Below are positions 19,297 through 60,041 of a stretch of DNA of 64,000 nucleotides, piece by piece. Made by a program: the position numbers and the translations under genes. The notes under the pieces are model-generated. The model did no database searches and was not told where the DNA came from. It saw nothing but the letters and a program-made list of their open reading frames with translations. Source of the DNA: a bacterium (GTDB lineage Bacteria; Latescibacterota; Latescibacteria; Latescibacterales; Latescibacteraceae); assembly GCA_021372535.1 (NCBI GenBank), contig JAJFUH010000112.1, forward strand, positions 1,034 to 65,033, written 5' to 3'. Within the stretch, counting starts at the first letter, position 1. Every line of letters begins with the position of its first letter.

Positions 19297-21271
19297 AAGT
19301 GCCGCCGCAATGTTTACGCATAATATATCTTATGTAAACTTATATATCTGCCGTTAGTATGTATTCCCCGTTTATCGAGCTGTTATGGACACATCCTGTC
19401 CCTGGGCCGTGGAAACGATATTTTCCCTCATATATGTCTTATCCCTCATAGTCATTCAACTGTTCTTTCTATTTGGAGACAAAAAACTTAAACCATCATA
19501 AATAAAGATACCATCGAAAAGTATCGGAATCAAGATTATGATGCTGTACTTTTTTAAAAATGATTCACATAATCATCATCACTTTATCCTCCACCGATTA
19601 CTTCTCAATATCCTTCCGTGTCACGGCATAATACTCACCATCCGGACATTTGTGATTTAAAAGACTTACATTTTGAATGATAACGATAAAAATTAAATGA
19701 TAACATCGTCTCTCATTGACAAAAAATCATTCTCTCTTTATAAGCAAAATAATGTATTTCTAAAAAATCAATAGCGTCATCATAGAGATTTACGGAAATA
19801 ATACGGTTATTATTTTCAATTAGTTTTAAATATCTCTATCAAGAAATTCAACTTCTAATGTGAATGATCTTATGAATTCTGTAACTATCTGAATCCCATA
19901 TGATTAAGAATACTCTGCATTATATTGTACAGTCTCAGACGCTACTATCCAGATTTCCGTCATATGACGTCTTATTTATTGACTTTTTTAAACATAACAT
20001 CGGACAAAATGAATAAACCTCCCCGTACGCTATTGATCTAAGATCGTCATATAATTGACTTATTTGCGTCAGTTAAGCATATATTAAAAGTATTCAATTT
20101 CCAATAGTGTCGTGTTTATGTCGTACGATATTGAAAAAAGTAGCTGAGATACTATTTACATAAATCTCATAAATAACAACAATATTACATTTATTCTATT
20201 GAAAATCACTCAGTCTTAATAATAGCGACATGTCGTAATAAATGCAACAATATATGACGATTGTCGAGTAGTGATAAAACGCCATGTCCCTTTGGTGATA
20301 CAGGGCAATTATCCTCATATTCATGTAAGATACAGAGATCACTTATACCAATATCGTAAGCATATTGATCCGATTATAGCGTCATACGACGCCAACAAAT
20401 ATTACGGATGATTCAAGAGTAATTTTATTTGTAAATGTAAATATATCACCGGTAACGTCGCCTTTGAATACAACCCATTGAATAACACCTGTACCGGATC
20501 GCACTTCAACGAAAATGATTTTACCGCTTTAACAGACATTCGTAACCCTTTCTTTTATACCGACAGCTTCGCCGTCACTTGATGTAATATCTCGAATGCA
20601 ACCATGCGGTATTTGAGAACGATAGTGTTGTCAGACAACCTGTGTTATCGTAAAGTATTATTGTTACCATATTAACGATTAATATATTGTCAGAAAAGGA
20701 GTTATTGCAATGACAGGGAAATTCCTCGCATGTATGAAACAAAATTATAATTCATTATATATATTATAAACAACATACTAATATATCGTGCGTCATATTG
20801 TATCATATATTATATAGCACTAAAATAAATATGATATATAATATAATCATACTACAACAATATTATTCCAAAATTACGAATGTGAAAAACCTTTAGTAAC
20901 GACACGAACTTTCGCTTTAACGCTTCATTGTAACGCATCCGAAAAAAACATAATCAAAATATATTTGTCACTTTATTTATTCTGATATACTTAATGCTCT
21001 ATTTTATAAAACGACATGTCGCAATATCGGCAAAATTACGCTTATGATTTTTCAGTATCAGGGGCAGCGTTCGTCTCTTACGTTTCACCGATACGAAATA
21101 TAAAATAATCCGTTTATTAAGTGGGGCATGGCGAAGCCGAGGGGGATCAATCATATCAGTTGATTTAACTGGATATCCTGATAAAAATTCAAGCTTTTCT
21201 GACGAATAAAAAAAGGAGCGATAAAAAATCTTCGCTCCCCTGCTCCATTATACTGATGTCATACAGTTTAT
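19297..21271. other. ORF-free AT-rich island of about 2 kb
   Basis: No ORF of 60 codons or more in any frame, although the track accepts GTG starts. GC is far below that of the flanking genes. It contains the palindromes cgacatgtcg (twice), cgtcatatgacg and tcgtacga. Confidence 0.5.
21212..21245 (-). terminator. Rho-independent terminator of pnp
   Basis: On the minus strand: GGAGCGA, loop agatttttt, ATCGCTCC, then TTTTTT, 25 nt after the pnp stop. Confidence 0.6.
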
Positions 21272-38385: not shown

Positions 38386-38603
38386 GAAACATTCTCCTGT
38401 AAGATATATAATATGGTTAAGAAATCATTCAAAATCAACGATTTTGTTGAAATGCTCACCGGTTTGCCGTATTATATAAAATGGACAATTTTTAATAATA
38501 CCATACGAAAACGTAAAGTTTTGAAAAATTATAAGATATTATTTATATTGTTTTTATAAATTTACAATAATTCATATTACCTGGCCCGGTGAAAAGGTTC
38601 TCC

Positions 38604-39110
38604 ATGGAATTTTTCGATATTCTCGATGATGAAGGAAATATAACCGGCTGCGCTTCCCGTCAGGAATGTCACAGCGGAACACGCTATCTGCACCGGGTCG
38701 TTCATGTGCTCGTATTCGACACATGCGGGAGGCTGTACCTTCAGAAACGCTCGCAGGACAAGGATATAGAGCCCGGGAAATGGGATACATCGGTCGGAGG
38801 CCATATCATGTCCGGGGAGATGCCCGAAGACGCTCTCATTCGTGAAGCCGAAGAGGAACTGGGAATCACCGGAACCGCTTTTGAGTGCCTGTACACATAT
38901 ATAATGGAGACCGATATCGAACGTGAGCTTGTCTTTACCTTCCGGTGTACATGGGAAGGGACGGTCAGATTCCACGGACAGGAAATCGAGGAAGTGTGCC
39001 CGTTTGATGTAGCCACCATCGGGTCATTGCTCGGCAGCGGCTGTTTCACGCCTCATTTCGAGGAGGAATGGAGGCGATACAGTCAATGGACGGATCAAAA
39101 CGGGGAATAG
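38604..39110 (+). CDS. NUDIX hydrolase
   Basis: The Nudix box is GGHIMSGEMPEDALIREAEEELGI (Gx5Ex7REUxEExGU). The start was chosen at the ATG 38604. The ORF track uses a GTG at 38589. Confidence 0.7.
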   Translation: MEFFDILDDEGNITGCASRQECHSGTRYLHRVVHVLVFDTCGRLYLQKRSQDKDIEPGKWDTSVGGHIMSGEMPEDALIREAEEELGITGTAFECLYTYIMETDIERELVFTFRCTWEGTVRFHGQEIEEVCPFDVATIGSLLGSGCFTPHFEEEWRRYSQWTDQNGE

Positions 39111-39116
39111 CAGGCA

Positions 39117-40892
39117 TTACACGATTTTTTCCGTATCGACAACCATCACGATACGGTTGGTATCCTGCAGAGGAGCATAACCCGCGACCGGAGGCTGTTC
39201 CGTCGCGGATGTGATGGTGCCGTGCGGGAGTACTCTGATACCGATAACACTATCGACACGGGTGCCGGTGATGCGATTCTTCCCCGTGAGCACGATTATG
39301 CGCTCTTTCAGCGGTTCCCGTGGGCGTTTCGCGGCGCGTGATCCCGGTTTTTTCGCGATATCGACAAGGTGAATGACTGTCTCGCCGTACCGGAGGACGT
39401 TTGCGGGAAGCTTGTCCGTGCCCTGCATGCCCGGCAGAAGCGACGAATGAAGAATCTCCTTTACCGTATCAGCCGGAAAGCCGTAATACACATCGTCAAC
39501 CACGGCGATAACGTATCTCCTGTCATCCCGGGATTCACGGGTGTCAGCCTTCTCTGCTGTTCCCGCAGCAATATCACTGAAATACTTCGTGTTGACACAG
39601 TACAGCGGTTCCGTACCGCCGTCAATTTCAACCGCGTGCCCCAAAATCGGCTCTTTTCCGGAGGATTGTGCGTTCTCCGATACCGTCGCGGAAAGAAACC
39701 GTGAGACGGAGCTCACGAGCAGTCCGGTTCTGGTGTTGGCCCCTTTCAGGACGAGGATACGGGATTGAGGAGTAATGGCGAGTTTCCCGGAACCGAGGAG
39801 CACTCCCATATCAAAAACAGGGAGATTTTTGTCCGTTATATGAGATATTCCCCCGGGATAAGCCGTTTCAGACGAAACCGGGGATATGCCCGAAGAATCA
39901 GTAATCGAATCGAGTTCGTCCGCAGCGATTCCATATGATTCTTTTCCGGCCTGAAACATGAGTATTTTCATCGTCCCGGTTTGAGGGAAAGAGGGACGTG
40001 TAACCGCAGTTTTCGGCGCCGGCGCGGGTTTTTCGCGTTCCCGTGGCTTTTCTTTTTCTGCCGGAACAGCGATAATTTCAGGTTTTACGGTTTTTTCCGC
40101 TATAATTTCCTGTGCAGGGGATTTCTTTTCGATACGGGTTTCGGGTACTGTTTGTTTCACGGCGGCGGGAGTTATTCCGGCCGTGCCCGACATTTCCTTG
40201 ATGAATGCATCGAAAGTTTCGCGCGGAGTACGCTCGATGTTCAGCAGAGCGGCAGGCTGATCCTTGATCATTTTTCCGACAGCATTGACGAATACACGGC
40301 GCTGGAACAGGAGCGATTCCCCCTGAAGCGGAAGAGCCACAAAGACATCGCCTGATTCAGCGGGCGCCGTATCGAGACCGAATCCGAAAATGTTTCTGCC
40401 GAATGTTCCTAGTGCATGGGCGGCAGATCGCCCATCCACCGGTTCAGTGTAGAATATCCAGAGATGATATTCACCCTTGCCGCCTTCGGTTACCTCGATG
40501 AGGGACGGAATATTTTTCCCCTGTAATTCCCCGGCAAACTGTTTTGCCTTGGTAAACGGATGATCGAGCTGGTCGGAAAGAATGAATTTGACCACACTCC
40601 ACGAGGTTTTACCGGATTTGGAAAGCGGATTGACTCTGACCGTGATATCTCCGGCGCAATGCTGAGCGACAGCCTCGTCCAGGGAGATTTCAGTCCGCTC
40701 GAAACGGCCTTCTCCCTCGATCTCGAACGTATCGACCGTCCGGCAGAACACATCAATCATGATATCCGCAGGAATGGAGGATTCGGATGCGCCCTTGTGC
40801 TTCTTTTGGGGCTTTTTTTCGATTATTGTCCGGGCTAAATCCGACCGCTTCGTAAAGTAGTCATCCCTGCTTTTAAACCGTCCCGGGGTCAT
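39117..40892 (-). CDS. Multidomain protein: an unassigned N-terminal domain of about 250 aa, a Pro/Lys-rich linker, and two tandem CheW-like domains (ParP-like candidate)
   Basis: CheW-like block 1 is MKILMFQAGKESYGIAADELDSI...VFDMGVLLG. Block 2 is RYVIAVVDDVYYGFPADTVKEILHS...HLVDIAKK. It is translationally coupled (4-nt overlap) to the upstream ParA-like ATPase. Confidence 0.55.
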   Translation of the reverse strand: MTPGRFKSRDDYFTKRSDLARTIIEKKPQKKHKGASESSIPADIMIDVFCRTVDTFEIEGEGRFERTEISLDEAVAQHCAGDITVRVNPLSKSGKTSWSVVKFILSDQLDHPFTKAKQFAGELQGKNIPSLIEVTEGGKGEYHLWIFYTEPVDGRSAAHALGTFGRNIFGFGLDTAPAESGDVFVALPLQGESLLFQRRVFVNAVGKMIKDQPAALLNIERTPRETFDAFIKEMSGTAGITPAAVKQTVPETRIEKKSPAQEIIAEKTVKPEIIAVPAEKEKPREREKPAPAPKTAVTRPSFPQTGTMKILMFQAGKESYGIAADELDSITDSSGISPVSSETAYPGGISHITDKNLPVFDMGVLLGSGKLAITPQSRILVLKGANTRTGLLVSSVSRFLSATVSENAQSSGKEPILGHAVEIDGGTEPLYCVNTKYFSDIAAGTAEKADTRESRDDRRYVIAVVDDVYYGFPADTVKEILHSSLLPGMQGTDKLPANVLRYGETVIHLVDIAKKPGSRAAKRPREPLKERIIVLTGKNRITGTRVDSVIGIRVLPHGTITSATEQPPVAGYAPLQDTNRIVMVVDTEKIV

Positions 40893-41635
40893 ACAAGCTC
40901 CTCGACAAGATTCCGGAAATCCTGCGCGCCGATACTGTCAGGATCGTATTCCATGATACTCTGACCCATTGCGGAGCTTTCACCTATTTTGACGTTCCGC
41001 CGTATCTTCGTTTTTGCAAGCGTGTCACCGAAAAAGGAGTGAAGCTGTTTCACCATTTCGCCCGCAAGCACCGTATTGGAATACATGGTCGGTATCACAC
41101 GGCCGATTTGAAGCCGTGCATTGTAATTATCACGAACCGCATCGATGGTTTCGAGCAGCTTGTTGGTTCCGATGACGCTCAGGTGTTCGCAGGCCACTGT
41201 TATATAGACCTCGTCGCTTGCCACAAGGCCGTTCACCGTGAGCGCGCCGAGGGAAGGCGGGCAATCGATGAGAATGTGGTTAAACCGTTCGGTCACGGGT
41301 TCAAGCGCTTTTTTCAGTCGGCGTTCATATCCGATAGCCGCAAAAATCTCGCGTTCGATGGAAGCGAGCAGGATATTGGATGGCACGAGCCAAACATTTT
41401 TGTGAATAGGCGCGATAACATCCTCGATCACCGCGGTCCCTCTGATGACATCATATACGGTCCGCTCGAACGAATCGGGATCGCTTCCGCACCATGATGT
41501 CAGGTTACCCTGGGGATCGAGGTCTATAAGGAGAACAGAACGGCCTTTCCGGGCAAGCTCGAATCCTATATTAACCGTACAGGTGGTTTTACCTACTCCA
41601 CCTTTCTGGTTGGCAAATACTGCAATTCTTTTCAT
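40889..41635 (-). CDS. ParA/MinD-family ATPase (ParC-like candidate)
   Basis: The deviant Walker A is ANQKGGVGKTTCTVN. DLDPQGN follows. The start was chosen at MKRIAVF. It is immediately downstream of pilC. Confidence 0.75.
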   Translation of the reverse strand: MKRIAVFANQKGGVGKTTCTVNIGFELARKGRSVLLIDLDPQGNLTSWCGSDPDSFERTVYDVIRGTAVIEDVIAPIHKNVWLVPSNILLASIEREIFAAIGYERRLKKALEPVTERFNHILIDCPPSLGALTVNGLVASDEVYITVACEHLSVIGTNKLLETIDAVRDNYNARLQIGRVIPTMYSNTVLAGEMVKQLHSFFGDTLAKTKIRRNVKIGESSAMGQSIMEYDPDSIGAQDFRNLVEELV

Positions 41636-41790
41636 GCAACCTCCGCGCCGGTATCTGTCATCCGGCAATATCGCACAATATATCGGACAAATGAAAGCCG
41701 TCAGATATGCTGAGCGTTCATAACGACATTACCCACATGTATGGGATGAAAACAGTATGAATGGCCGGCGTCCGAACAGCAATTTCATCA

Positions 41791-42999
41791 TTAACCCTGT
41801 ACCGCATCGATCATACTGAACATCGGCATGTACATAGCGATGAGCACGCCGCCCATAATAACCGCAAGAATGACGATGATTATAGGTTCCATGAGACCTG
41901 TCAGAGTCTCGACCGCCGCATTCACTTCTTCGTCATAAAAGTCGGCAATTTTGTTGAGCATCTGATCCAGACCACCCGATTCCTCCCCCACTGCAACCAT
42001 CTGGATAACCATGGGCGGGAAAACATTGGTTTCCTTCATCGGCTCGGTAATGGTTTTTCCTTCGGAAATCGCCGTAATCATGCTCTGCAATGCCCGGCGA
42101 ATAACCATGTTCGAGGCTGTTTTTGCGGTAATTTCGAGGGCTTCGAGAATTGATACACCACTCGAGAGAAGGGTTCCGAGTGTCCGTGAAAACTGGGCAA
42201 CTGCGCTTTTTTTAGCCAGGTCTCCGAGGGCAGGGATTTTCAGTACCATTTTATCGGTATTGAAACGGCCTTTCGGGGTTTTCCGGTATTTGATGAACGC
42301 TGTGAAAGCGGCGACTATTACCGCGACAATGGGAAGTATTTTTTTCGGTGTTTTCATGAAATTTGACATATTGACAACTATCTGGGTAGGTGCGGGAAGT
42401 TTCGCGCCTGCATCGAGGAACATCTTCGTAAATACCGGGATGACAAAAATCAGAAGTGCTGCTACGGCGCCGACTGCTACAATCGAAATAATGATGGGAT
42501 ACATCATTGCGCCTTTGATTTTACGGTTGAGAGCCGCCGCTTTTTCGAGAAACGAAGCGAGACGCAGCAGGATTGTATCGAGGATACCGCCGATTTCGCC
42601 GGCAGCGATCATATTGACAAATAATTCGGGAAATACTTTCGGATGTTTTGCCAGGCTGTCGGCAAGTGAATTCCCTGACTCGACGCTTTCGGTTACGGAA
42701 ATGAGAACCTTTTTAAAGTTCGGGTTTTCCGACTGTTCGGAAAGAATGTTCAGACACTGTATAAGCGGAAGACCCGCGGAGATCATCGCGGAAAACTGAC
42801 GGGCAAAATTGGTGATGTCCTCGGCTTGTACTCCGGTGCCGATCTGTAAACTGAATCCACCTGATTTTTTCTTGACTTTTGTAACGATAATGCCCTTTGA
42901 CCGGAGTAATTTGTAGACTTCCTCCTGGCTGGCGGCGGAAATTTCCCCCTTTACTCCTTTACCGCCTCTTGCTTTACCTTCGTATAAGAAATCCGGCAT
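41791..42999 (-). CDS. pilC: Type IV pilus assembly inner-membrane platform protein (GspF/PilC family)
   Basis: 402 aa with two repeated GspF domains, each carrying the conserved GxxLxxxL..P motif. It has three TM segments. Confidence 0.8.
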   Translation of the reverse strand: MPDFLYEGKARGGKGVKGEISAASQEEVYKLLRSKGIIVTKVKKKSGGFSLQIGTGVQAEDITNFARQFSAMISAGLPLIQCLNILSEQSENPNFKKVLISVTESVESGNSLADSLAKHPKVFPELFVNMIAAGEIGGILDTILLRLASFLEKAAALNRKIKGAMMYPIIISIVAVGAVAALLIFVIPVFTKMFLDAGAKLPAPTQIVVNMSNFMKTPKKILPIVAVIVAAFTAFIKYRKTPKGRFNTDKMVLKIPALGDLAKKSAVAQFSRTLGTLLSSGVSILEALEITAKTASNMVIRRALQSMITAISEGKTITEPMKETNVFPPMVIQMVAVGEESGGLDQMLNKIADFYDEEVNAAVETLTGLMEPIIIVILAVIMGGVLIAMYMPMFSMIDAVQG

Positions 43000-43051: not shown

Positions 43052-44725
43052 TTATGCGGTCATTGTCTCACGAATCACTTCTTCATAATCGACTATTCCC
43101 TGTTTCATCTTGAGAATCGCATCCATACGAAGCGTAAGCATACCGTCCTTGATAGCCTGATCCCTGATGTCGGCTGTCGAACCGCCATCCAGAACAACCT
43201 GTCTGAGCGTGGGGGTCATCAGCATGACTTCATAGGCGCCGATTCTTCCTTTTTTGCCGGTCCCGTTGCATTTCGGACAGCCGACAGGTCCGTATATGAC
43301 GTCATCTTTAGTTATATTCAGTTCTTTGTGAAGCTCTTCGGGCACTTTAATGGGTTTTTTACATTCCTTGCAGAGACGGCGTAAAAGCCGCTGCGCCTGA
43401 ATGAGGTTTACCGCCGATGCTATCTGGAATGGCGCTATTCCCATATCGATCATACGGGTAACCGTGCTCGGCGCGTCGTTGGTATGGAGAGTGGAAAGCA
43501 CAAGGTGTCCGGTCAGGGCTGCTTTCACTGCGATACTGCCGGTATCGATATCACGAATCTCGCCGATCATGATGATATTGGGGTCCTGGCGGAGAAACGC
43601 CTTGAGCGCCGCGGCAAAAGTCATGCCCACCTCGGTACGGACAAGAACCTGATTGATACCGTAAAGATTATATTCCACAGGGTCTTCCGCTGTCATAATG
43701 TTGACACCAATCTGATTGATATGGCTCAGCGCCGAATAAAGCGTGGTGGTTTTTCCCGAACCGGTCGGCCCCGTTACCAGAACCATACCGTACGGCGATT
43801 CGATAGCATGCAAAAAATCGTGTAATGCTTTCTCAGTGAAACCGAATGTTGTGAGGTCAAGGGTAAGATTGCCCTGGTCGAGAATACGCATGACGATCTT
43901 TTCACCAAACAGCGTCGGGAGTGTCGATACACGGAACTCGACAGATTTTGAGGGCATACGGATTTTAATACGGCCGTCCTGGGGAACGCGGCGCTCGGAT
44001 ATATCGAGATCGCTCATAATCTTGACTCTCGATATAACCGCGGCTTTGAGTTTATTGGGAAGTGGAGGCATTTCCTGCAAAACACCATCGAGACGGAATC
44101 TGACACGGACCTCTTTTTCGAAAGGCTCGATGTGGATGTCCGATACACCCTTCTTGACCGCATCGACGAGGATGGAGTTTACGAGACGTACCAACGGCGC
44201 GTCGTCGGCATGGACACCCTCGACCTCCTCCTCGGTTTCCTCGACGACCTCGAGATCCGAGCCCTCGAAATCACTGAGAATGCTCGACATTTCCTCGGTT
44301 GTTTTATATATCTTGTCAATAATAGTACGAATCGAGCTTTCGGTTGCTATAAACGGTTCAATTTTATATCCGGTGATGAGCTTTATCGAATCAAGGGCGA
44401 ACATATTGGTGGGATCGGATATTGCCACCTTGAGTGTTTTCCCGTCACGGGAAAAGGCAATGACCTGAAATTTGATCGCTACTTCAGCGGGTATGATATT
44501 GACAACATCCTCGTCGATCTCATCGAGCTTCAGCTCGACGATTTTTATGCCCAGCTGCTTGGCAAGCGCGCTGTAAAGATCATGTTCGTTAACATATCCG
44601 AGCTCAATCAGGTTACCGCCAAGGTTTCCGCCCTTTTCCCGCTGCCGCTTGAGTGCATCCTCAAGCTGCTGCACCGATATTTTCTTGTCCTTGACAAGAA
44701 GATTGCCGATTCGCGCCTCAGCCAT
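43052..44725 (-). CDS. pilB: Type IV pilus assembly ATPase (GspE/PilB family)
   Basis: An N-terminal GSPII_E_N-like region, the Walker A VTGPTGSGKTTTL, Asp/His boxes, and the C-terminal tetracysteine motif CPKCNGTGKKGRIGAYE. Confidence 0.85.
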   Translation of the reverse strand: MAEARIGNLLVKDKKISVQQLEDALKRQREKGGNLGGNLIELGYVNEHDLYSALAKQLGIKIVELKLDEIDEDVVNIIPAEVAIKFQVIAFSRDGKTLKVAISDPTNMFALDSIKLITGYKIEPFIATESSIRTIIDKIYKTTEEMSSILSDFEGSDLEVVEETEEEVEGVHADDAPLVRLVNSILVDAVKKGVSDIHIEPFEKEVRVRFRLDGVLQEMPPLPNKLKAAVISRVKIMSDLDISERRVPQDGRIKIRMPSKSVEFRVSTLPTLFGEKIVMRILDQGNLTLDLTTFGFTEKALHDFLHAIESPYGMVLVTGPTGSGKTTTLYSALSHINQIGVNIMTAEDPVEYNLYGINQVLVRTEVGMTFAAALKAFLRQDPNIIMIGEIRDIDTGSIAVKAALTGHLVLSTLHTNDAPSTVTRMIDMGIAPFQIASAVNLIQAQRLLRRLCKECKKPIKVPEELHKELNITKDDVIYGPVGCPKCNGTGKKGRIGAYEVMLMTPTLRQVVLDGGSTADIRDQAIKDGMLTLRMDAILKMKQGIVDYEEVIRETMTA

Positions 44726-45021: not shown

Positions 45022-45900
45022 TCAGACAAGTACCTCAAACAGTTTATGCCTTCCGGTGAATCCTTTTAAATCGAAAAAGCCGATACACCGGGTTTTTATC
45101 TGGGTATCGTTCGAAATCATTTTTTGCACCGTTTCCGCGATGAAGATACGGTCCGATCTTGGCATGTCGTCCTTTTTAATACCCATAACCGTTTGATGCA
45201 TATCGTCGATTTTAACCGATTCGACGCGAAAAGCCATATCGACAGCCATACCCCGGCGGTCACCATCGGGAAGCTTGAAAGTCTCGCCGTAATTGATACC
45301 GATCCGGACACGGATTCCGGCGGATGATTTCTGTTCCTTCAGGTCGGTTAAAAAGCCGATAGCCAGATTGACCGCGGGTTTAACCTTGCTGAAAACGAGC
45401 ATGAAACCGTCACCGGTATTTTTTATGAATTCCGCGGGATTTTCCTTGAGATTTTTTTTCAGACAGAGCAGCAGAGTATTTTTCACTTTACTGGCGATAC
45501 GGTCACCGACAAGCTGGGCGATATTCGAGGAACCGACCATATCGATAACGACGATTGCTTCGGGTGTTGTTTCCATCGCGGAATCGGGTTCGGCAAACCG
45601 CTCTTCGGTGCGCCGCGACACTTTCAGAAACGTATGCCCGAGTCTGAAAATATCTCCCGGATTGACCACTACGGGAGCGGTGACCGGATCGCCAAGAAGA
45701 AACGTGCCGTTCTTGCTTTTACTGTCCTGAAGGGTAATCACCCCGTCTTCAGCTACCTCCAGCACGGCGTGGGTACCCGATATATATTTATCATCGGGTA
45801 AAACAATATTTGATTCGGAGGAACGGCCGATGCTGTATGTGCCGGGTATCAGGGTTGTCCGTGTACCCTCTTTTTCGCCATTCAGAATAAATAAATACAT
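45022..45900 (-). CDS. FHA-domain protein fused to a class III adenylyl/guanylyl cyclase catalytic domain
   Basis: The FHA block is YSIGRSSESNIVLPDDKYISGTHAVLEV...NGTFL. The cyclase blocks are VVIDMVGSS, NTGDGFMLVF and RVRIGINYGE. Confidence 0.7.
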   Translation of the reverse strand: MYLFILNGEKEGTRTTLIPGTYSIGRSSESNIVLPDDKYISGTHAVLEVAEDGVITLQDSKSKNGTFLLGDPVTAPVVVNPGDIFRLGHTFLKVSRRTEERFAEPDSAMETTPEAIVVIDMVGSSNIAQLVGDRIASKVKNTLLLCLKKNLKENPAEFIKNTGDGFMLVFSKVKPAVNLAIGFLTDLKEQKSSAGIRVRIGINYGETFKLPDGDRRGMAVDMAFRVESVKIDDMHQTVMGIKKDDMPRSDRIFIAETVQKMISNDTQIKTRCIGFFDLKGFTGRHKLFEVLV

Positions 45901-46250: not shown

Positions 46251-46793
46251 ATGGAAGAAGACTGGCGTATCACACTGAGTTGCCTTGAATCGCCCGATCC
46301 GTCATTTGTCGGAACCCAGAAAGTATTCACACAATCTCCAATCAACATCGGACGCGCCGAAAACAGCGATATGGTAATACCGGATCTGGCTGTGTCGCGA
46401 AACCACGCAATACTCAGGATCACGGCGGATTATACACGTGTTTTTATTACCGATATGAGCACCCATGGGACAGAAGTTTCCGGGAAAGTCGTTCCAAAAG
46501 GCAGGGGCAGCGGTTTCACCCTCGAGAATGGCGATACGATCAAGCTGGGAGAAACCGTGTTACAATACGAGTTGAAACTGAAAACGAGTGTTCAATCCAC
46601 CATGGTCGGTAAAATTGACCGGAGTTTCCTTGATAAGCCCCCCGAGCCGGTTGTTGCCGAAAAAATCGAAGAACCGGTAATACCGTTAAAAACCGTCGCA
46701 CCCGCTGCCGCCCAAAAGAATTTTAACCCGATTTATCTCGGCATAATCATTATCAGCCTCGCGCTTATCATATACCTGTTAATAAAAGGCTGA
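46251..46793 (+). CDS. FHA-domain protein with a C-terminal TM anchor
   Basis: The FHA block is INIGRAENSDMVIPDLAVSRNHAILRI...HGTEV. The C-terminal hydrophobic helix is IYLGIIIISLALIIYLLI. Confidence 0.65.
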   Translation: MEEDWRITLSCLESPDPSFVGTQKVFTQSPINIGRAENSDMVIPDLAVSRNHAILRITADYTRVFITDMSTHGTEVSGKVVPKGRGSGFTLENGDTIKLGETVLQYELKLKTSVQSTMVGKIDRSFLDKPPEPVVAEKIEEPVIPLKTVAPAAAQKNFNPIYLGIIIISLALIIYLLIKG

Positions 46794-46839
46794 TATTCAC
46801 GAAATTGAGCACGATTTCCTTTTCAGGAGAAACCATAGA

Positions 46840-47685
46840 ATGGTTACCATGACAACCGCGGGTTTGACAGACACCGGCATGTCCAGAACAAATAATGAAG
46901 ATACGTATTTAACTGATAAATCATTGCTTATCGTGGCGGATGGTATGGGCGGAGCCGCGGCGGGTGAAGTTGCAAGCCAGCTTGCGGTAGAAGAGATATC
47001 AAAAAAACTCAGGGGAACAGTGTATGTTTCGGACGACCAGATACGGAAAGCATTTAACGACGCCATCTGGAATGCCGATGCAACAATAAAAGAACGTACC
47101 CGTAAAAATCCCGATCTCAGAGGGATGGGAACGACCATAATGGCCGCTCTCCATCTCGGCGACCGTCTTCTTATAGGATTTGTGGGTGACTCACGCGCGT
47201 ATATCGTCACTCAGAAAAATCAGGATTCTCCTGCCTCGTCACGGCCCGATGTTCCGAAAGTCGATACAAATGCCGCAACCGCAATCTTACAGAAAATCAC
47301 CGATGACTTTCAGCCTTCATCTAAGGAAAAAGGAAGCATCCAGCGTATAACGAACGATCATTCTGTTGTCATGGAACTTGTCAATTCCGGTGTCATACAG
47401 GAAGATGATATCCGCACCCATCCCATGAGAAACCGAATCACACGGTGTGTGGGGAATCTGACCGATAAGGGTCCCGACTTTGTCTGGCATACCATAGCCA
47501 ATGACGATACGCTTATTTTGTGTTCGGACGGATTATGGGAAATGATTCACGAAGACCTGATTTTCGCCATCGTGAAATCGTCGAAAACTGTCGAAGAAAT
47601 GTGCAAGCGGCTTATCAATGCGGCAAATGATGCCGGCGGAGCCGATAACATCACCGTCATCACGGCTCAATTCAAAAAGCAGTAA
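46840..47685 (+). CDS. PP2C-family Ser/Thr protein phosphatase
   Basis: The PP2C motifs NEDTYL, VADGMGG and a GGADNITVI tail are present. Confidence 0.8.
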   Translation: MVTMTTAGLTDTGMSRTNNEDTYLTDKSLLIVADGMGGAAAGEVASQLAVEEISKKLRGTVYVSDDQIRKAFNDAIWNADATIKERTRKNPDLRGMGTTIMAALHLGDRLLIGFVGDSRAYIVTQKNQDSPASSRPDVPKVDTNAATAILQKITDDFQPSSKEKGSIQRITNDHSVVMELVNSGVIQEDDIRTHPMRNRITRCVGNLTDKGPDFVWHTIANDDTLILCSDGLWEMIHEDLIFAIVKSSKTVEEMCKRLINAANDAGGADNITVITAQFKKQ

Positions 47686-50190
47686 TCATCGCTGTTTCCC
47701 ACCCCGCGCCAGACGGAATCCCGTGTGCGGTCCCGTGTAATCGGGAGGATGCGGTCCCCGTATCGAGTTCCTGATAAGCTTGGCATTCGAATTCCATCCG
47801 CCTCCCCGAACAACACGCCCTGGTCCCTGCGAAGCTCCCGCGGGATTCACCACAAGCCCGGATTGATACGGTCCGAACCAGTCGGCGCACCATTCCCACA
47901 CATTTCCCGCCATATCGTTCAGACCGAACTGATTGGGAGGAAATGTGCCTGCTCTGGTCAGTGATGTCCGCCAGCCTGTCCCGTTATTCCAGTCGTTCCC
48001 GAAATTGGCGCGTTTTTCGGGAGATTCGTCGCCCCATGGGTACAGTTTACCCTCCAGCCCGCCGCGCGCGGCATATTCCCATTCGGCCTCGGTCGGGAGA
48101 CGGGCGCCGGCCCATTGTGCGAATGCGGCCGCATCGGACCACGATACGAATACAACGGGACGGTCGGGACGAGCCTGCTGGCTTCCCCATGATGGAGGCT
48201 CCGCGTGACCGGTTGCCTTGAGAAATGCCGCATACTGCACCACGGTTATCTCATCACGGGACATTTCGAAAGCCGATACGGTTACCCTGTGTACCGGCCG
48301 GACCTGCAGCTGCTCCTCGATATCGCCCTGGGAATCACCCATCATGAACGTACCGGCAGGAATCCGTATCCAGACAAGCGCGACCGTTTCCTTCGGTTTT
48401 GTTTCCTGTTTTTCGGGCTTGATTTCCGGTTTCACGAGAACCGCAACGGGCTGATCCGTCGCTTGATTCCTGGTTTTTGCTGGCGGTGCAGTGGTTTTTT
48501 GAGGAGCCTTATCTTCCGGTTTTTCCACGGGTTTTTTCTCATCGGTGCGCACAGGGGATGACGATGAAGCCGGGCGTGATTCAGCCGGAGATTTTTCCTC
48601 GGTCCGGGTCGATAAAGTTTCCGGTTTTTTCTCCGGGGTTTTTTGTGCCGGTGAAGCGGAAACGGGCGGCTGTTGCTGCGTTTTTACCGTTTCCTGCTGT
48701 TTTTCCGCGGAAGGCAACATGCGTTCCGGTTTTTTTTCGCTGTCCTTTTTTACCTGAGGCGAACTATCCGATGACGGTTTCGTCTGTTCCCCGGCGGGAG
48801 TTTCACCGGTTTTTTGCAGTGGTTCCGTCTGAGATTTGGTACCGCCCGAAGATGCCGTTACCGGCGGCGATGATTTCTTCCCCTGCGGAATAACATAGTA
48901 GAGCGCCCCCAGAACAACTCCGATCATGCCCAGCGACAGGAGAGCATACATCAGCATGGAAGCGCGTTTCTTCTCTTTCTGTGGTTTTCCTGCCGCTTTC
49001 CCCGCGCTGGATTGAACCGGTCCCGTGAGGGTATCTCCAAGCTTTCCGGAAGCCTCGGGGGAATCCTTGCCCGGCTTTTCCACTGTCTTTCCGGCGGATA
49101 CCGCTTCAGCCGGAAGTATTACCGTTTCGGCAAGAGGTGTTTTATCCTCTTCCGGGACAGGTTGTCCGTATACGGGTTGAGGAGAAGCGATGGTTTCGGA
49201 CGACTCGGACTGTTCCGGCTGGTTTTCGAGGATTTGCTCATGGAGCGCCTTGCCAAGCTCGGCTGCCGATTGATACCTGTCTGCAGGACTCTTGGCAATA
49301 GCTTTCATGATAATAGCGGAAAGTTCTTTCGGTACTTCCCTGTTGATGGTTTCCGGCAGCGGCGGGAGCACGTTCACCTGATTGTAGAGAAGCGCGGTAT
49401 GATCGAGACCGAAGAACGGCGATTTCCCGACCGCCATCTGGTACAGGACGCATCCCAGACTGTAGATATCCGACCTGCCGTCAACCTCTTCCCCCTTTAT
49501 CTGCTCGGGGCTCATGTACATGGGAGTGCCGATGAACATGCCCGTCTGCGAAAGCTTCGCGCTGCGCTGGGCTTTTGCTATCCCGAAATCGACGACGATC
49601 GGCTGCCGTTTTTTATTGACGATGATATTTTCGGGTTTGATATCACGGTGGATCACTCCCTTCTCGTGGGCATGCTGGAGCGCGAAACTGACCATGACCG
49701 CAAGACGGGCAAGCACCCGGGGTTTGAGCGCCCCGCTCTTTTTGATGATCTGGTCGAGGGGTACTCCCTCGATAAAAGCCATCGAATAATAGTAAAATCC
49801 GCCGCTTGTATCGACATCGTGAATCTGTATAATGTTCGGATGGAGAAGCTTGGCTGCAATTTTTGCTTCACGCAGGAAACGTTTGGCAAAGTTTTCATCG
49901 TATGACATCTCCTGCGGGAGCAGTTTAAGTGCGACAAGGCGTTCGAGACGGCTGTCCTCGGCAAGAAAAACAATTGCCATGCCTCCCCTGCCTAGTTCAC
50001 GGATAATTCTGTACCGGTGCGAGACCGCGGCCTTGAACCGCTCGATGTAATCCCCTTCCCCGTTCTGTGAGGTTTTTTCCTGAGCCCCCGACGGTTTTCC
50101 GGGAGTGATCTCCCTGGGGAGTTTTTCGCCGCAGTTGGTACAAAACTCTGCTTCATCCCTGTTTTCTGTTCCGCATTTATCGCAAAACAT
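47686..50190 (-). CDS. Hanks-type Ser/Thr protein kinase with an N-terminal zinc ribbon, a TM segment and a C-terminal FGE-sulfatase domain
   Basis: The zinc ribbon is CDKCGTENRDEAEFCTNCG. The kinase subdomains are GRGGMAIV..ALK, HRDIKPENI, DFGIA and SPEQ. A Pro/Lys/Thr-rich linker precedes the TM segment (LMYALLSLGMIGVVLGALYYVI). The FGE blocks are RLPTEAEWEYAARGG and GNVWEW. Confidence 0.85.
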   Translation of the reverse strand: MFCDKCGTENRDEAEFCTNCGEKLPREITPGKPSGAQEKTSQNGEGDYIERFKAAVSHRYRIIRELGRGGMAIVFLAEDSRLERLVALKLLPQEMSYDENFAKRFLREAKIAAKLLHPNIIQIHDVDTSGGFYYYSMAFIEGVPLDQIIKKSGALKPRVLARLAVMVSFALQHAHEKGVIHRDIKPENIIVNKKRQPIVVDFGIAKAQRSAKLSQTGMFIGTPMYMSPEQIKGEEVDGRSDIYSLGCVLYQMAVGKSPFFGLDHTALLYNQVNVLPPLPETINREVPKELSAIIMKAIAKSPADRYQSAAELGKALHEQILENQPEQSESSETIASPQPVYGQPVPEEDKTPLAETVILPAEAVSAGKTVEKPGKDSPEASGKLGDTLTGPVQSSAGKAAGKPQKEKKRASMLMYALLSLGMIGVVLGALYYVIPQGKKSSPPVTASSGGTKSQTEPLQKTGETPAGEQTKPSSDSSPQVKKDSEKKPERMLPSAEKQQETVKTQQQPPVSASPAQKTPEKKPETLSTRTEEKSPAESRPASSSSPVRTDEKKPVEKPEDKAPQKTTAPPAKTRNQATDQPVAVLVKPEIKPEKQETKPKETVALVWIRIPAGTFMMGDSQGDIEEQLQVRPVHRVTVSAFEMSRDEITVVQYAAFLKATGHAEPPSWGSQQARPDRPVVFVSWSDAAAFAQWAGARLPTEAEWEYAARGGLEGKLYPWGDESPEKRANFGNDWNNGTGWRTSLTRAGTFPPNQFGLNDMAGNVWEWCADWFGPYQSGLVVNPAGASQGPGRVVRGGGWNSNAKLIRNSIRGPHPPDYTGPHTGFRLARGGKQR

Positions 50191-56033: not shown

Positions 56034-56405
56034 TTATCCAATAATTTCGGTAATTTTTGCATTCAGTGTTTTTGCATCAAACGGCTTTACGATATAGCCA
56101 TTTACACCCGATTTTATTGCGCTGACGATATCTTCTTTCATATTCCGCGTTGTAACCATGAGAATCGGAATACTTTTAATTTTAGGATCTGCCCTCACTG
56201 CTTCGGTAAGCTCGAGTCCGTTCATATTTGGCATGTTCCAGTCGGTCATGAGCAGATTGAAATCACCTGCCAGTAATTTTGCCAGGGCGTCCTTACCATC
56301 CTCGGCTTCTTTGACCTGAGAGTATCCCGCTTTAATAACTGTGTTGACCAGAATACGTCGCATTGTAGGCGAATCGTCGACAATCAATATTTTAAGATCG
56401 GGCAA
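56034..56405 (-). CDS. cheY: CheY-like single-domain response regulator
   Basis: 123 aa with LIVDDS, the MTDWNMP phospho-acceptor Asp and a YIVKPF Lys motif. Confidence 0.85.
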   Translation of the reverse strand: MPDLKILIVDDSPTMRRILVNTVIKAGYSQVKEAEDGKDALAKLLAGDFNLLMTDWNMPNMNGLELTEAVRADPKIKSIPILMVTTRNMKEDIVSAIKSGVNGYIVKPFDAKTLNAKITEIIG

Positions 56406-56445
56406 TTTTCTATCTCCTTTTAAGGGTTAAAGCATATATTATCAG

Positions 56446-57840
56446 TTATTTCGAAAGACGAGCAACACTGCCGTCAATCAATCTGAATTGAGACGGCCCC
56501 AGGGTGTCCTCGACGGTGAGCCACTGGTGGCCGATATAAACCTGTAATTTGGGAAACGCACTGACAGCGGCAGAGACAAAAACCTTATCGAGATCTTTCT
56601 GGTCATCGAGGAGTTTTTGTTTGTATTTTTCCAGGGATTCAATTTTTTCCGGCAATGATTTCCGTGTCTCTTCAAGTTTTTCAAGGAGTTGAGCTTTGTC
56701 AGGCGGAAGATGGCCTTTACCATCTATTTTAATTTTATAGAGATAAATAATACTTTTTTCTAATTTCTCATCGGATTCCCGTACTTTTGCCAGTTCTTCA
56801 TCCGTATTTTTCATACGGTCGGCTAATTTTGGATCGATGCCGACCTTTATTACAGTAGGAGTACATGCAACCGAGCCGAGCCGAGCCGTTTCGACTGATG
56901 TTTTTGCCTCGCATACACCACCGACAATGGTACTTTTAGCGCCTTTCGCCATAATCGATCCTCCCGCAAACAGCCTGGCATGGTATGAATCACCAAGAAT
57001 GATAATATCGCGGTCGGCTCTAAGGCACTGGTTTTCAACAAATTTGACTGTTATATCCCTGCCAGCCTGAATCAATGAATTACCGCTTCCGGCACAACCG
57101 CCGGCAATTATGACATCATTACCACTGATTACAATCGCATCCTCTACATTTTCCCGTATTTCAACATCACCCTCGGCTTCAACCCTGAATCCGGACCTGA
57201 CAGAACCGTTTATTTTTACTGTTCCCTTAAATACAACATTACCTGTTTCATAATCGACATCACCCTTGACTTCATGAACCGGGGCTATCTGTACGACACC
57301 TTTTATAAACTGAACCTCACCATCAATGGCCGCGATTATCAGATTGGGATCGTTATCGGCAAAGGCAGTTCCCTTTCCCAGAACAATCTGAAAATCTTTT
57401 CCGGTCAATCCGGGAATCTGGTTTCCCATGACATCAAAGCCGGCTTCTCCGATTGTCGGGGGAATTTTTCTGAAAAGTTTCTGCCCCTTGACAGCCGACA
57501 CCACTTCTCCCAGATTACGGAAATCCATACTTCCGTTTTCGCGTTCGATAGCTTTTGTTTTTTTGTTAAAATCAATATATGCTTCGATTTTGGCTTTCTG
57601 GCCGTATTGCGGTTGTACCGCTTCGGCTATGACAACGGAGGGCATGGGTATTTTCGATTCGCACATTCTCTGGATGATATCTTCCTTAATTCCTGCCTTT
57701 ATTCCTTCTGCTTTCAGTTTAAGATTAACATCATTAACCGAAAGAATTTTACCTTCTCCATACGGGGGAGTGTAATTTGCCACCACTTTCATTTTATTGT
57801 CGGCAATTTTTATTTTAATTGCGGCATCAATATCAGCCAT
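56446..57840 (-). CDS. FapA-like protein (DUF342, flagellar assembly protein A family)
   Basis: 464 aa. The central region has the repeated beta-helix-like G-x-V/I pattern. There is a C-terminal coiled coil. It sits between cheZ-like and cheY. Confidence 0.55.
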   Translation of the reverse strand: MADIDAAIKIKIADNKMKVVANYTPPYGEGKILSVNDVNLKLKAEGIKAGIKEDIIQRMCESKIPMPSVVIAEAVQPQYGQKAKIEAYIDFNKKTKAIERENGSMDFRNLGEVVSAVKGQKLFRKIPPTIGEAGFDVMGNQIPGLTGKDFQIVLGKGTAFADNDPNLIIAAIDGEVQFIKGVVQIAPVHEVKGDVDYETGNVVFKGTVKINGSVRSGFRVEAEGDVEIRENVEDAIVISGNDVIIAGGCAGSGNSLIQAGRDITVKFVENQCLRADRDIIILGDSYHARLFAGGSIMAKGAKSTIVGGVCEAKTSVETARLGSVACTPTVIKVGIDPKLADRMKNTDEELAKVRESDEKLEKSIIYLYKIKIDGKGHLPPDKAQLLEKLEETRKSLPEKIESLEKYKQKLLDDQKDLDKVFVSAAVSAFPKLQVYIGHQWLTVEDTLGPSQFRLIDGSVARLSK

Positions 57841-58021
57841 TACAGCCCCCTGAGTTTCACCGTATTAAATTTTCAAAAAGTATCACTCCGGTGTTGAAAC
57901 AGTGACATCGTTTGATCTCATGCCGAACATGTCTCGGAATCAGTTCCGAAGTGTGGCACCGGCTGGTATATGCCGGGTACCAAACTGTAGTAAATATCGA
58001 TAATACAGCATGATGGTTATA

Positions 58022-58825
58022 CTACGCATCTTTATTTTTATCTGATTCGTTCAATTTATTGAGCAGTGCATTTATATCCGGCTGACCATCCGCTCCATAA
58101 ACTATTTCATCTTTCATATCAGCAGTTCCTCCGGTATCACCGGGCTGGTCGGCGGATTCTGTATCGTCTATATTTTGCGTGGTCTTTATCATTTGTGCTT
58201 TTTCCAGGTATTCGTCGGCTATTCGCTGTGATTTTGCAGACCGGTCAAAATCGAACTCCGCATTACTGTCAAACGCAGCCCCAGTTTCCTTCAGCCGTCT
58301 GATTCCCTCTTCATCGAACCCCTGGAGCAGGTCACCCAGTTTATTCTGAACTCTTCCCATTACCTGCGCAATGCTGTTTATCTGCTGCGTGGTGATATCC
58401 TGGAACTGGAGAGCATTCATGATAGAAAACAGATCATCCTGACTTCCCTCGACTTCTCCCCGAATCACCGCTGTTTTTTCTTTCATTACATCCGGATTAC
58501 ACGATTCGGCGGCATAGAGCGTTTCAATTTCATCGAGCGCGGTAGTCATTGTATTCAAGCGATTAATGACATTATCGACTTTATCCATCACTTCCGTTGT
58601 GGCCATTTCGGTTGCGCTCGTAACTTTACTGAGTTTTTCCGAGGCGGAGGGAATCATTTCCGATGATTGATGCAGATCCGAGTGTATCGAATTCAATAAG
58701 GGGACGACTTCTTCGATAAAATAGACCAGTTTAGCGATCTGCGGCATGTATTTTTTTGTGGTATCAAAGTAGCCTTTAATCGCGTTGAAGCTGTTAATCA
58801 GCCTGGTTATTTCAGCTTTTTCCAT
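58022..58825 (-). CDS. CheZ-like CheY-P phosphatase
   Basis: ALQFQDITTQQINSIAQV matches the CheZ catalytic helix (FQDLTGQ, Asp and Gln). The protein is helical and acidic, and its C-terminus is acidic like the CheY-binding peptide. Confidence 0.55.
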   Translation of the reverse strand: MEKAEITRLINSFNAIKGYFDTTKKYMPQIAKLVYFIEEVVPLLNSIHSDLHQSSEMIPSASEKLSKVTSATEMATTEVMDKVDNVINRLNTMTTALDEIETLYAAESCNPDVMKEKTAVIRGEVEGSQDDLFSIMNALQFQDITTQQINSIAQVMGRVQNKLGDLLQGFDEEGIRRLKETGAAFDSNAEFDFDRSAKSQRIADEYLEKAQMIKTTQNIDDTESADQPGDTGGTADMKDEIVYGADGQPDINALLNKLNESDKNKDA

Positions 58826-60041
58826 AATAATAAATCTCCATAATGATGAAGTATCATTGTAATCGATTTTATTTCCAATTGGTTACAGCACAACTAACAA
58901 ATAGATGCACGATAAATACATACCGTATGAAATATGTTTTTTATTTGCATAAAAGTCAACAAATTTCAATAGGTATGCTTATTATACTATCATTATAAAA
59001 ATGTTATTTTTTTGTTATTAAAATCGCGGAGCAATAAAATAAACTGAAGAATGTGCTCTTTTATATATACGATCGTGTCACAGGATTATCCGCTCATTTA
59101 ATTACCCGGATCTCAGCATAAAACACCATATTCTCAGTTTAAACAATATATTATCGACACCATCAAAGAGATTGACCCGGAAATATAACCACGCATCCTC
59201 ATTTCGCGTTATGTTTTTTTTCTATGGTTATTAAACAAATGATAAAGATAACGTCACATTATGGAGAAATATTAATTTAAATATTTTATTTATATTATTA
59301 TCAATCTATTATAGATATTTATACGCTGTATATGAAAGCGACATTCCTTTCGAATATTTTCGTCAGACGTATAAATACACCAATATTTGTATCTAATGCA
59401 TAGAGAGTTCAATCAATGATATACACAGCGACATCTTAATTATTTCAATTTGTTCGTATTATATTATATCATACTGTTATTACAGGTTATATATAAAATA
59501 TAAATTTAGAAGTAAAAACGACCTGACATGGATAATCTATCATATAAATGTAATATATTACACATAACAGTTAATGTTAAAGTGTAACATATTACACTTT
59601 ACCGTATTAAAAAGTTAAAAATTATATCATATGCTGTATTAATAAGATATTATGTATACTATATCATACTCGGTTCAATCTTCAGGGTCAGGCATGAATC
59701 CATAAGAATGAATCGTTAACATGTCATTATAATAATTATACAATATGATATTTCCCTCAAAAGAGTGCGTGCCGCTTTTCGCGGCGCCCATTTCACTTCC
59801 CCGATACCTCATTCGAGGATGGACGCTGCTTTACAGTGCCCGAGAGGACGGATAAAGGATATTACCGTATAAATGGTGTTCTCATAAAACGAGGATCGCC
59901 ATGTCGTTATATAGTATTGACCGATAAAGAAATTTTATGTATATTTATCGTGTCATATTTGTTACAGTTTCCAATGATATCCGCCTGCTGTTTATACAGT
60001 ACATATATAACTGTAAAATATTCAATTAGAATGGAGGTACA
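58826..60041. other. ORF-free AT-rich divergent intergenic island of about 1.2 kb between the cheZ-like gene and dapA
   Basis: No ORF of 60 codons or more. It contains palindromes at 59549-59562 and 59580-59599, and a GC-rich structured block at 59755-59865. Confidence 0.5.

Follow-up and report, generated by a model that had tools for sequence, protein, structure and literature searches.

ParA/MinD ATPases place many bacterial cargos, and the recruitment of new cargos is poorly understood. The question arises at a locus from a bacterium of the phylum Latescibacterota (assembly GCA_021372535.1, contig JAJFUH010000112.1), in a stretch of 64,000 nucleotides (positions 1,034 to 65,033 of the contig; hereafter the window), where the gene for a ParA-type ATPase overlaps a gene for a 591-aa protein that ends in two CheW-like domains. 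An interpretation made previously from the letters of this DNA (hereafter the sequence-only reading) had called the N-terminal ~250 aa of that protein unassignable, and had proposed that the pair is a positioning module linking a chemosensory array to type IV pili. What is the N-terminal domain, then, and what would such a pair position? The domain was assigned to the archaeo-eukaryotic primase (AEP, or Prim-Pol) fold, with eroded catalytic motifs. With a probability of roughly one half, the two genes would form a ParC/ParP-type positioning module that carries an exapted, dead primase domain and places the cargo of its adaptor at the site of the type IV pilus motor.

An eroded primase fold in a CheW-domain protein

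The ~240 N-terminal amino acids of the 591-aa protein (named simply CheW by NCBI, and hereafter AEP-CheW) proved to be a real, strongly conserved domain. Pfam assigned it to AEP-TOTE (PF22548; 51 bits vs. a cut-off of 27), and weak matches to CRISPR-associated Prim-Pol (CAPP) proteins were obtained in NCBIfam, PADLOC (27 bits) and the sequences of the PDB. An AlphaFold2 (AF2) model of the domain, built on 18 homologues, reached a mean predicted local distance difference test score (pLDDT) of 83, with values >90 over most of residues 41-235, and the best Foldseek matches of this domain were the CAPP Prim-Pol structures 7P9J/7NQE (E 4e-11, template modelling score (TM) 0.67/0.75), followed by Prim-PolC and LigD-pol. 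In the predicted structure, residues 41-238 adopt the archaeo-eukaryotic primase fold, and the elements HLxG, motif II GxGxH-W-F, FP, LPL and VF are common to the window domain and the AEP/CAPP Prim-Pol proteins (7NQD-7P9J). This assignment had not been foreseen by the sequence-only reading. It also answers the doubt voiced there that the region might be an ordinary CheA P-domain, and the protein a truncated CheA: Pfam, NCBIfam, PADLOC, PDB sequences and structure all indicated AEP/Prim-Pol, no CheA P-domain match was found, and a truncated CheA was ruled out.

Among 1.84 billion representative proteins, searched exhaustively and without a profile, ~28 members of the AEP-CheW family were recovered (E <1e-30), all of them from metagenome-assembled genomes of the Latescibacterota, an uncultured phylum, followed by a gap to E ~1e-7. 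The proteins past this gap were ordinary AEP-TOTE primases fused to AAA_25, DnaB_C, ResIII or PriCT_1, and fusions to such modules are typical of mobile-element primase-helicases. No description of an AEP-CheW fusion was found in a literature search on CheW and archaeo-eukaryotic primase.

The active site was compared in an alignment of 29 family members and 15 AEP-TOTE primases. The first position of motif I (DxD) was acidic in 14 of the 15 primases and in a single family member (1/29), Arg or Lys being mostly found instead (K102 in the window protein). The second position was acidic in all primases (15/15) and in 22/29 family members, the window protein having I104, while the acidic residue of motif III, present in 11/15 primases, was kept in 4/29 family members and is replaced by S180 in the window. 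None of the catalytic acids of motifs I and III is thus found in the window protein. Because these metal-binding acidic residues have been lost, the domain is probably a repurposed, non-catalytic version of the fold. Motif II (GKGxYH, of the sGxGxH type) is retained, reading GGKGEYH143LW in the window protein, with His in 22/29 members, and E133 is present in 29/29. Residues specific to the family and invariant within it are S106, P112-F113, Q190, E192 (29/29), Q197, N203 and V205-G206-K207, and position 182 is D or E in 24/29. The domain has a net charge of -8 and, with a mean pairwise identity of 57%, is the best-conserved globular domain of the family protein. Unlike AEP primases, which have the first acid of motif I, the Asp of motif III and helicase, PriCT or zinc modules, the window domain is devoid of all of these, and it is fused to CheW-like domains and paired with a ParA. 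A TOTE or other anti-phage defence system was rejected, as only weak PrimPol matches were obtained in PADLOC (27 bits), no system partners were found, and the neighbours are pilus and housekeeping genes.

CheW-like domains and linker

The remainder of the protein agrees with what the sequence-only reading had described, namely two C-terminal CheW-like domains behind a Pro/Lys-rich linker. Pfam CheW (PF01584) matched two stretches (87.5 bits, cut-off 23.5, E 8e-25), the full-length AF2 model showed two beta-barrels at residues 308-445 and 458-590, and Foldseek searches with the barrels retrieved isolated CheW and CheA-P5 chains (target-normalised TM ~0.7-0.8), in agreement with a CheW fold. The first domain was moreover matched by phmmer to TtCheW (2QDL, E 4e-5) and to E. 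coli CheW. The linker, predicted to be disordered, contains 11 Pro, 9 Ala, 9 Lys and 9 Glu among its 67 residues, and its length is highly variable in homologues. Mean pairwise identity within the family was 21% in the linker, 23% in the first CheW-like domain and 25% in the second, R531 being the sole invariant residue in the C-terminal half. The position of E. coli CheW R62 is occupied by Thr in the first domain (HMMER alignment), and the protein scored 18 bits against the NCBIfam CheW model (cut-off 260), which sets it apart from canonical CheW coupling proteins.

A ParA clade with a shared N-terminal peptide of its partners

The product of the upstream gene was assigned to the ParA/MinD ATPases by Pfam (AAA_31, E 8e-53; CbiA, E 1e-21), by the presence of the deviant Walker A motif KGGVGKTT together with LIDLDPQ and LIDCPP, and by its top PDB sequence matches, the ParA/Soj proteins 8RAY and 1WCV. 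It does not classify as a chromosomal Soj/ParA, as no ParB gene lies nearby and the score against NCBIfam ParA_partition was 114.6 bits vs. a cut-off of 180. In Soj proteins the Arg position of 'RRNV' serves non-specific DNA binding; this position is retained in the window ParA, and by analogy it may have the same function there. A TTG at 41668 is a possible longer start, yet the start was placed at the ATG at 41635 because GGAGG lies six bases upstream and the resulting length, 248 aa, is that of nearly all listed orthologues. The stop codon of this gene and the start codon of the AEP-CheW gene share the ATGA at 40889-40892, and the two genes are translationally coupled through this 4-nt overlap, which was present in all related loci and also in the sister-clade loci described below. 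The ATPase motif, the overlap and the coordinates given by the sequence-only reading were all confirmed. Both open reading frames (ORFs) are real genes rather than chance ORFs, since they have homologues and a conserved gene order.

Homologues of the window ParA fell into three tiers, comprising orthologues (70-85% identity), whose partner is an AEP-CheW wherever the context is known, a sister tier (58-63%) and generic Soj proteins (43-47%); judged by these identities, the orthologues are a discrete clade. A further Soj-like ParA paralogue of the Latescibacterota, 44% identical to the window ParA (locus L021, 73-864), adjoins a sigma-54 activator, with no parB beside it.

Three gene contexts were available for the sister ParAs, each with a 4-nt overlap between ParA and its partner. 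In one (L013) the order is REC, ParA and CheW (218 aa); in another (L019/L020) it is a methyl-accepting chemotaxis protein (MCP), ParA, CheW (217 aa), a sensor kinase-REC, a second CheW and a second MCP; and in the third (L016, 1018-2807) ParA is followed by a 348-aa MinD/FlhG-like ATPase. Chemosensory genes therefore surround or adjoin the sister ParA in two of the three contexts, more weakly in L013. The CheW partners are canonical single-domain proteins (118 bits) that keep NLRG/NLRD. Since the sister ParAs are coupled to canonical CheW, the arrangement of a ParA with a CheW adaptor is apparently older than the gain of the primase fold.

A short peptide at the very N-terminus links all of these partners. 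In the AEP-CheW family it is the region of highest mean pairwise identity (73%), with R5, F6, K7, S8, D11, Y12 and F13 invariant in 18 homologues and the consensus MSAARFKSKDDYFSKRSGLAE. It is rich in basic residues (MxxxRFKSxDDYF, with the basic R5/K7) and predicted to be flexible (pLDDT <50), as are the first 40 residues as a whole in the full-length model. The spacer that follows contains five Lys or Arg vs. two Asp or Glu in 16 residues, and its basic character is kept across the family at low identity. The sister partners begin with MSAKRFRVEKDYFDKKSRFPE and MSAQRFRAEKDYFGKRSRLPE, and MSAxRF[KR]xxxDYF is thus the start of three types of partner of this ParA clade, namely AEP-CheW, CheW and the MinD-like ATPase. 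The window has a single occurrence of the pattern RF[KR]xxx[DENS]YF, and so have 20 of the 21 fetched loci, always N-terminal in the gene after ParA; the exception is L021, with its unrelated ParA paralogue, where it is missing. A scan of GTDB genomes with two peptide patterns returned three loci, a metagenome scan with the peptide returned two additional loci of the AEP-CheW family only, and nothing was found in a protein search with the 40-aa peptide alignment.

Partners of ParA/MinD ATPases such as ParB, MinE, PomX and McdB carry N-terminal peptides that stimulate the ATPase. The peptide described here resembles them in being short, flexible, conserved and basic, and in belonging to a protein encoded beside the ATPase; unlike them, MSAxRF[KR]xxxDYF was matched to no described peptide, and its activity is putative. 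In AlphaFold 3 models of the ParC/ParP system, ParC is contacted by residues 15-25 of ParP (bioRxiv 10.1101/2025.10.27.684771). Because the peptide is conserved, flexible and basic, and because ParP likewise contacts ParC through a short N-terminal stretch, we infer from the alignments that it is a ParA-docking, possibly ATPase-stimulating element that is portable between clients. The 348-aa MinD-like ATPase of L016 begins with MSAKRFRVEKDYFDKKSRFPE, the same peptide as the CheW partners. As it carries the shared peptide, one ParA-type ATPase seems to recruit another through a common tag at that locus.

Gene neighbourhood and the type IV pilus genes

The pair belongs to a minus-strand run of five genes, in the order FHA-cyclase, pilB, pilC, ParA and AEP-CheW (Table 1), the last being placed at the end of the run because a convergent Nudix gene ends 6 nt beyond it. 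This order was constant in ~10 independent contigs of the Latescibacterota, and the block was identical wherever the upstream DNA reaches far enough, while AEP-CheW proteins across these contigs share 31-39% identity overall and 37-60% in the N-terminal domain. The upstream flanks vary, with a Ser/Thr kinase-PP2C-FHA trio, OmpA, polysaccharide genes, GH97 or dapA/dapB. The sequence-only reading, which had reported pilB, pilC and the FHA-cyclase on the same strand, had made conservation of the pair with pilB and pilC in related genomes a touchstone of its proposal; both the genes and their conservation, in every locus that reaches upstream, were verified. In a 1.57-Mb contig (L002, 4678-7779) the gene of a 1033-aa glycoside hydrolase of the GH123 family is inserted between pilB and pilC, and the genes for pilC, ParA and AEP-CheW stay contiguous despite this insertion. 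The gap between pilC and ParA measures 155 nt in the window and 53-202 nt in relatives. The GC content at the locus was unremarkable.

Table 1. Positions in the window of the ParA/AEP-CheW pair, of the segments of the AEP-CheW protein and of the neighbouring genes
Feature	Residues	Positions	Strand	Evidence or remark
AEP-CheW gene (591-aa protein)		39117-40892	minus	ORF call and homologues
N-terminal peptide MTPGRFKSRDDYFTKRSDLARTII	1-24	40821-40892	minus	putative ParA-docking/activating motif
Lys/Arg-rich spacer	25-40	40773-40820	minus	low pLDDT
AEP (Prim-Pol) fold domain, eroded catalytic motifs	41-238	40179-40772	minus	Pfam PF22548, AF2, Foldseek
Disordered linker	239-305	39978-40178	minus	pLDDT ~32-38
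CheW-like domain 1	306-450	39543-39977	minus	Pfam CheW, phmmer, AF2 barrel
CheW-like domain 2	456-591	39120-39527	minus	best Pfam CheW stretch 460-590, AF2 barrel
ParA/Soj-like P-loop ATPase gene, 248 aa		40889-41635	minus	deviant Walker A KGGVGKTT; DLDPQ; IDCPP
PilC, type IV pilus platform protein		41791-42999	minus	Pfam T2SSF, E 6e-67
PilB, type IV-A pilus assembly ATPase		43052-44725	minus	TIGR02538, 701 bits (cut-off 675.65)
FHA + class III nucleotidyl-cyclase-like protein		45022-45900	minus	Pfam FHA, E 2e-16; Guanylate_cyc, E 3e-5 (weak)
Small FHA protein		46251-46793	plus	
PP2C phosphatase		46840-47685	plus	
Ser/Thr kinase fused to FGE-sulfatase domain		47686-50190	minus	

PilC scored 505 bits against the NCBIfam PilC models, below their cut-off. 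The N-terminus of PilB matched MshEN (E 6e-20) and a c-di-GMP-binding motif (NF053729, E 4e-17), and nucleotide signalling may feed into the locus through this region and the weak cyclase domain of the first gene. The kinase, PP2C and small FHA genes form a trio (46251-50190) that divergently adjoins the FHA-cyclase and pilB block, and the same trio, or PP2C and FHA, recurs in L001, L006/L007, L010 and the P0034 contig; its recurrence beside the block in several loci hints at phospho-Thr control of the pilus/ParA genes.

Genes for a CheY-like REC protein, FapA and a weakly matched CheZ-like protein form a small minus-strand cluster at 56034-58825. The sequence-only reading had placed them near the pair, and the genes are real, but they are separated from the pair by ~15 kb that includes TPR and amidohydrolase genes. 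With CheY-like and CheZ-like genes present in the window, the organism probably has a chemosensory pathway.

A proposed positioning module and its alternatives

The closest parallel in architecture is ParC/ParP of Vibrio and Pseudomonas, which brings chemotaxis arrays to the cell pole and in which a ParA-like gene is directly followed by that of a CheW-domain partner, as in the window. ParP interacts with ParC through an N-terminal region, which is followed by a linker rich in Pro and by an AIF domain that is CheW-like (PMC5706961). The same succession of an N-terminal peptide, a disordered Pro-rich linker and C-terminal CheW-like barrels is found in the window partner, and members of the sister ParA clade, within chemosensory clusters or next to them, share the arrangement with a CheW partner of one domain. 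The differences are also clear: in the window partner a dead primase fold of 200 aa is added and the CheW-like domain is present twice, each time without the canonical Arg, the pair comes after pilB-pilC rather than after che genes, an association with a che cluster being seen only in the sister loci, and the host belongs to the Latescibacterota and is not a gammaproteobacterium. A second parallel is PpfA/TlpT of Rhodobacter sphaeroides, where a ParA-like ATPase segregates the cytoplasmic chemoreceptor cluster. The N-terminus of its chemosensory client activates that ATPase, as is proposed for the window pair; the client differs in being a soluble receptor rather than a CheW-like adaptor, and the system has neither a primase-like domain nor a pilus context.

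On these grounds we propose that the 248-aa Soj-like ParA paralogue would act as an ATP-bound dimer that gives the spatial cue, bound to either a polar anchor or the nucleoid, and that the 591-aa protein would be its dedicated client and adaptor. The flexible N-terminal peptide would dock on ParA and probably stimulate its ATPase, while the long disordered linker would set this docking end apart from the barrels and let them engage a lattice or another partner, so that the two CheW-like, SH3-type barrels could insert into or nucleate a chemosensory-type lattice. Between peptide and linker, the lineage would have inserted a Prim-Pol fold captured from a mobile-element primase-helicase, and this dead primase fold would serve as a lineage-specific binding or scaffold surface rather than as a polymerase. 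As FHA-cyclase, pilB and pilC invariably precede the pair in the Latescibacterota, its most likely role would be to bring what the adaptor carries to the place in the cell where the type IV pilus motor lies. Confidence is fairly high in the ParA-adaptor logic, and moderate to low as to what the cargo is and whether the pair is linked to the pilus. The proposal of the sequence-only reading, a module joining an array to pili, is thus upheld as regards a ParC/ParP-like pair, its pilus half being suggested by synteny within one lineage; neither MCP nor CheA is encoded in the window.

Several observations weigh against the proposed module. The retention of motif II, E133 and E192 makes some ligand-binding or catalytic role of the primase fold possible. 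The canonical Arg-Gly (R62-G63 of E. coli CheW, NLRG) is not conserved in either CheW-like domain across the family, and these fast-evolving domains, lacking the Arg-Gly that the sister CheWs keep, may no longer bind receptors or CheA; no gene for an MCP, for CheA or for another CheW was found in the 64-kb window. The resemblance to Vibrio ParC/ParP is one of architecture and gene order, orthology to them being hypothetical, and the binding of the peptide to ParA is putative. Concerning the pilus, the scan of the locus for promoters and terminators performed no better than on shuffled sequence, and the 155-nt gap between pilC and ParA contains a weak promoter-like match, so that co-transcription is only putative. 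Downstream genes for endonuclease IV, DHH and dCTP deaminase are equally syntenic, and because such housekeeping genes keep their place within one lineage as well as the pilus genes do, the pilus link is suggestive rather than proven.

Some of these observations would be accommodated by ordinary array positioning equivalent to that of ParC/ParP, serving flagellar-type chemotaxis arrays only, with the adjacency to pilB-pilC a historical accident. Members of the sister ParA clade have chemosensory genes as neighbours and canonical CheW as the coupled partner, the window has its CheY-like, FapA and CheZ-like genes, synteny of the whole region, housekeeping genes included, makes adjacency weak evidence, and the 155-nt gap could hold a promoter of ParA's own. 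We nevertheless regard this explanation as unlikely, given that the five-gene block is intact while the upstream flanks differ, that pilC, ParA and AEP-CheW are contiguous despite the insertion between pilB and pilC, and that the CheW-like domains, without the canonical Arg, diverge fast, unlike the sister CheWs. The loss of this Arg and the poor conservation of these domains would also agree with a pair that needs no chemosensory array and acts on the pilus machinery itself, by positioning or regulating it, its degenerate barrels and dead primase being generic interaction modules that bind PilB, PilC or the FHA/cyclase proteins. The constant association with the FHA-cyclase, pilB and pilC genes, the lack of MCP and CheA genes in the window and the strongest constraint falling on the primase fold and the peptide, not on the CheW part, agree with such a role. 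It is unlikely all the same, as the CheW fold has been kept twice and chemosensory clusters are indicated as the ancestral setting of the pair, and its binding to any pilus protein would be hypothetical.

The remaining alternatives concern the primase fold itself. If it were still an enzyme, or a sensor of nucleotides or nucleic acids (pilus-imported DNA or the nucleotide made by the cyclase), the part of ParA and the CheW-like domains would be confined to its localisation. Motif II (H143 in 22/29) and E133 (29/29) are kept, new acidic or polar residues are invariant or nearly so (E192 in 29/29, D/E182 in 24/29, Q190, N203, K207), the domain is the best conserved globular one (57% identity), and an FHA-cyclase and a PilB with a c-di-GMP-binding MshEN are its neighbours; however, the metal-binding triad is broken (K102, I104 and S180 are all non-acidic), a net charge of -8 is unfavourable for non-specific DNA binding, and helicase, PriCT and zinc-binding partner domains are lacking, which makes this improbable. 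ParA and AEP primases are both common in mobile elements, and the closest active relatives of the N-terminal domain are primase-helicases typical of them, so that the pair could also be taken for a remnant of an integrated plasmid or other mobile element, a partition ParA with a decayed replication primase and no cellular role. Such a remnant would hardly keep a conserved chromosomal position, intact in ~10 genomes despite 31-39% overall identity, with strong purifying selection on peptide, primase fold and ParA, nor would the fusion to CheW-like domains and a sister clade beside chemosensory genes be expected; the GC content is unremarkable and no significant matches to defence systems were found in PADLOC. 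Chromosomal synteny and purifying selection make this origin very unlikely, and it was set aside.

Two leads follow from the locus. A short peptide common to three unrelated partners of one ParA clade looks like a portable docking tag, and a mobile-element primase fold has apparently been domesticated, with loss of its active site, within a cytoplasmic positioning adaptor that also contains CheW-like domains. Should the link to pilB-pilC be functional, it would mean ParA-based co-location of sensory and pilus machinery in an uncultured phylum. A bolder extension, distinctly unlikely in our estimate, is that the dead primase fold is a sensor of the cyclase's nucleotide messenger or of nucleic acid at the pilus that gates the docking of the client on ParA, with the peptide as a general address tag for the ParA clade. 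ParA-driven placement of the CheW scaffold beside the pilus motor would then become signal-dependent, and MSAxRF[KR]xxxDYF would let this clade position unrelated cargos such as CheW adaptors, MinD-like ATPases and AEP-CheW.

Other features of the window

A 132-aa ORF on the minus strand (38577-38975) lies wholly within the Nudix gene on the opposite strand (38589-39110, plus), and is probably spurious. Scans of the window for Rfam families, tRNAs and repeats found nothing. They covered a stretch of ~2 kb (19300-21270) that is AT-rich (GC 0.38-0.40) and without an ORF >55 aa, which likewise gave no match to Rfam families or tRNAs and contained no repeats of note; it is located between a gene for a TPR/PMT-like membrane protein and pnp. 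The lowest GC content of the window (0.355) was found in the region of the chemosensory cluster (56034-60041), at the CheZ-like gene and the 1.2-kb gap that follows it.

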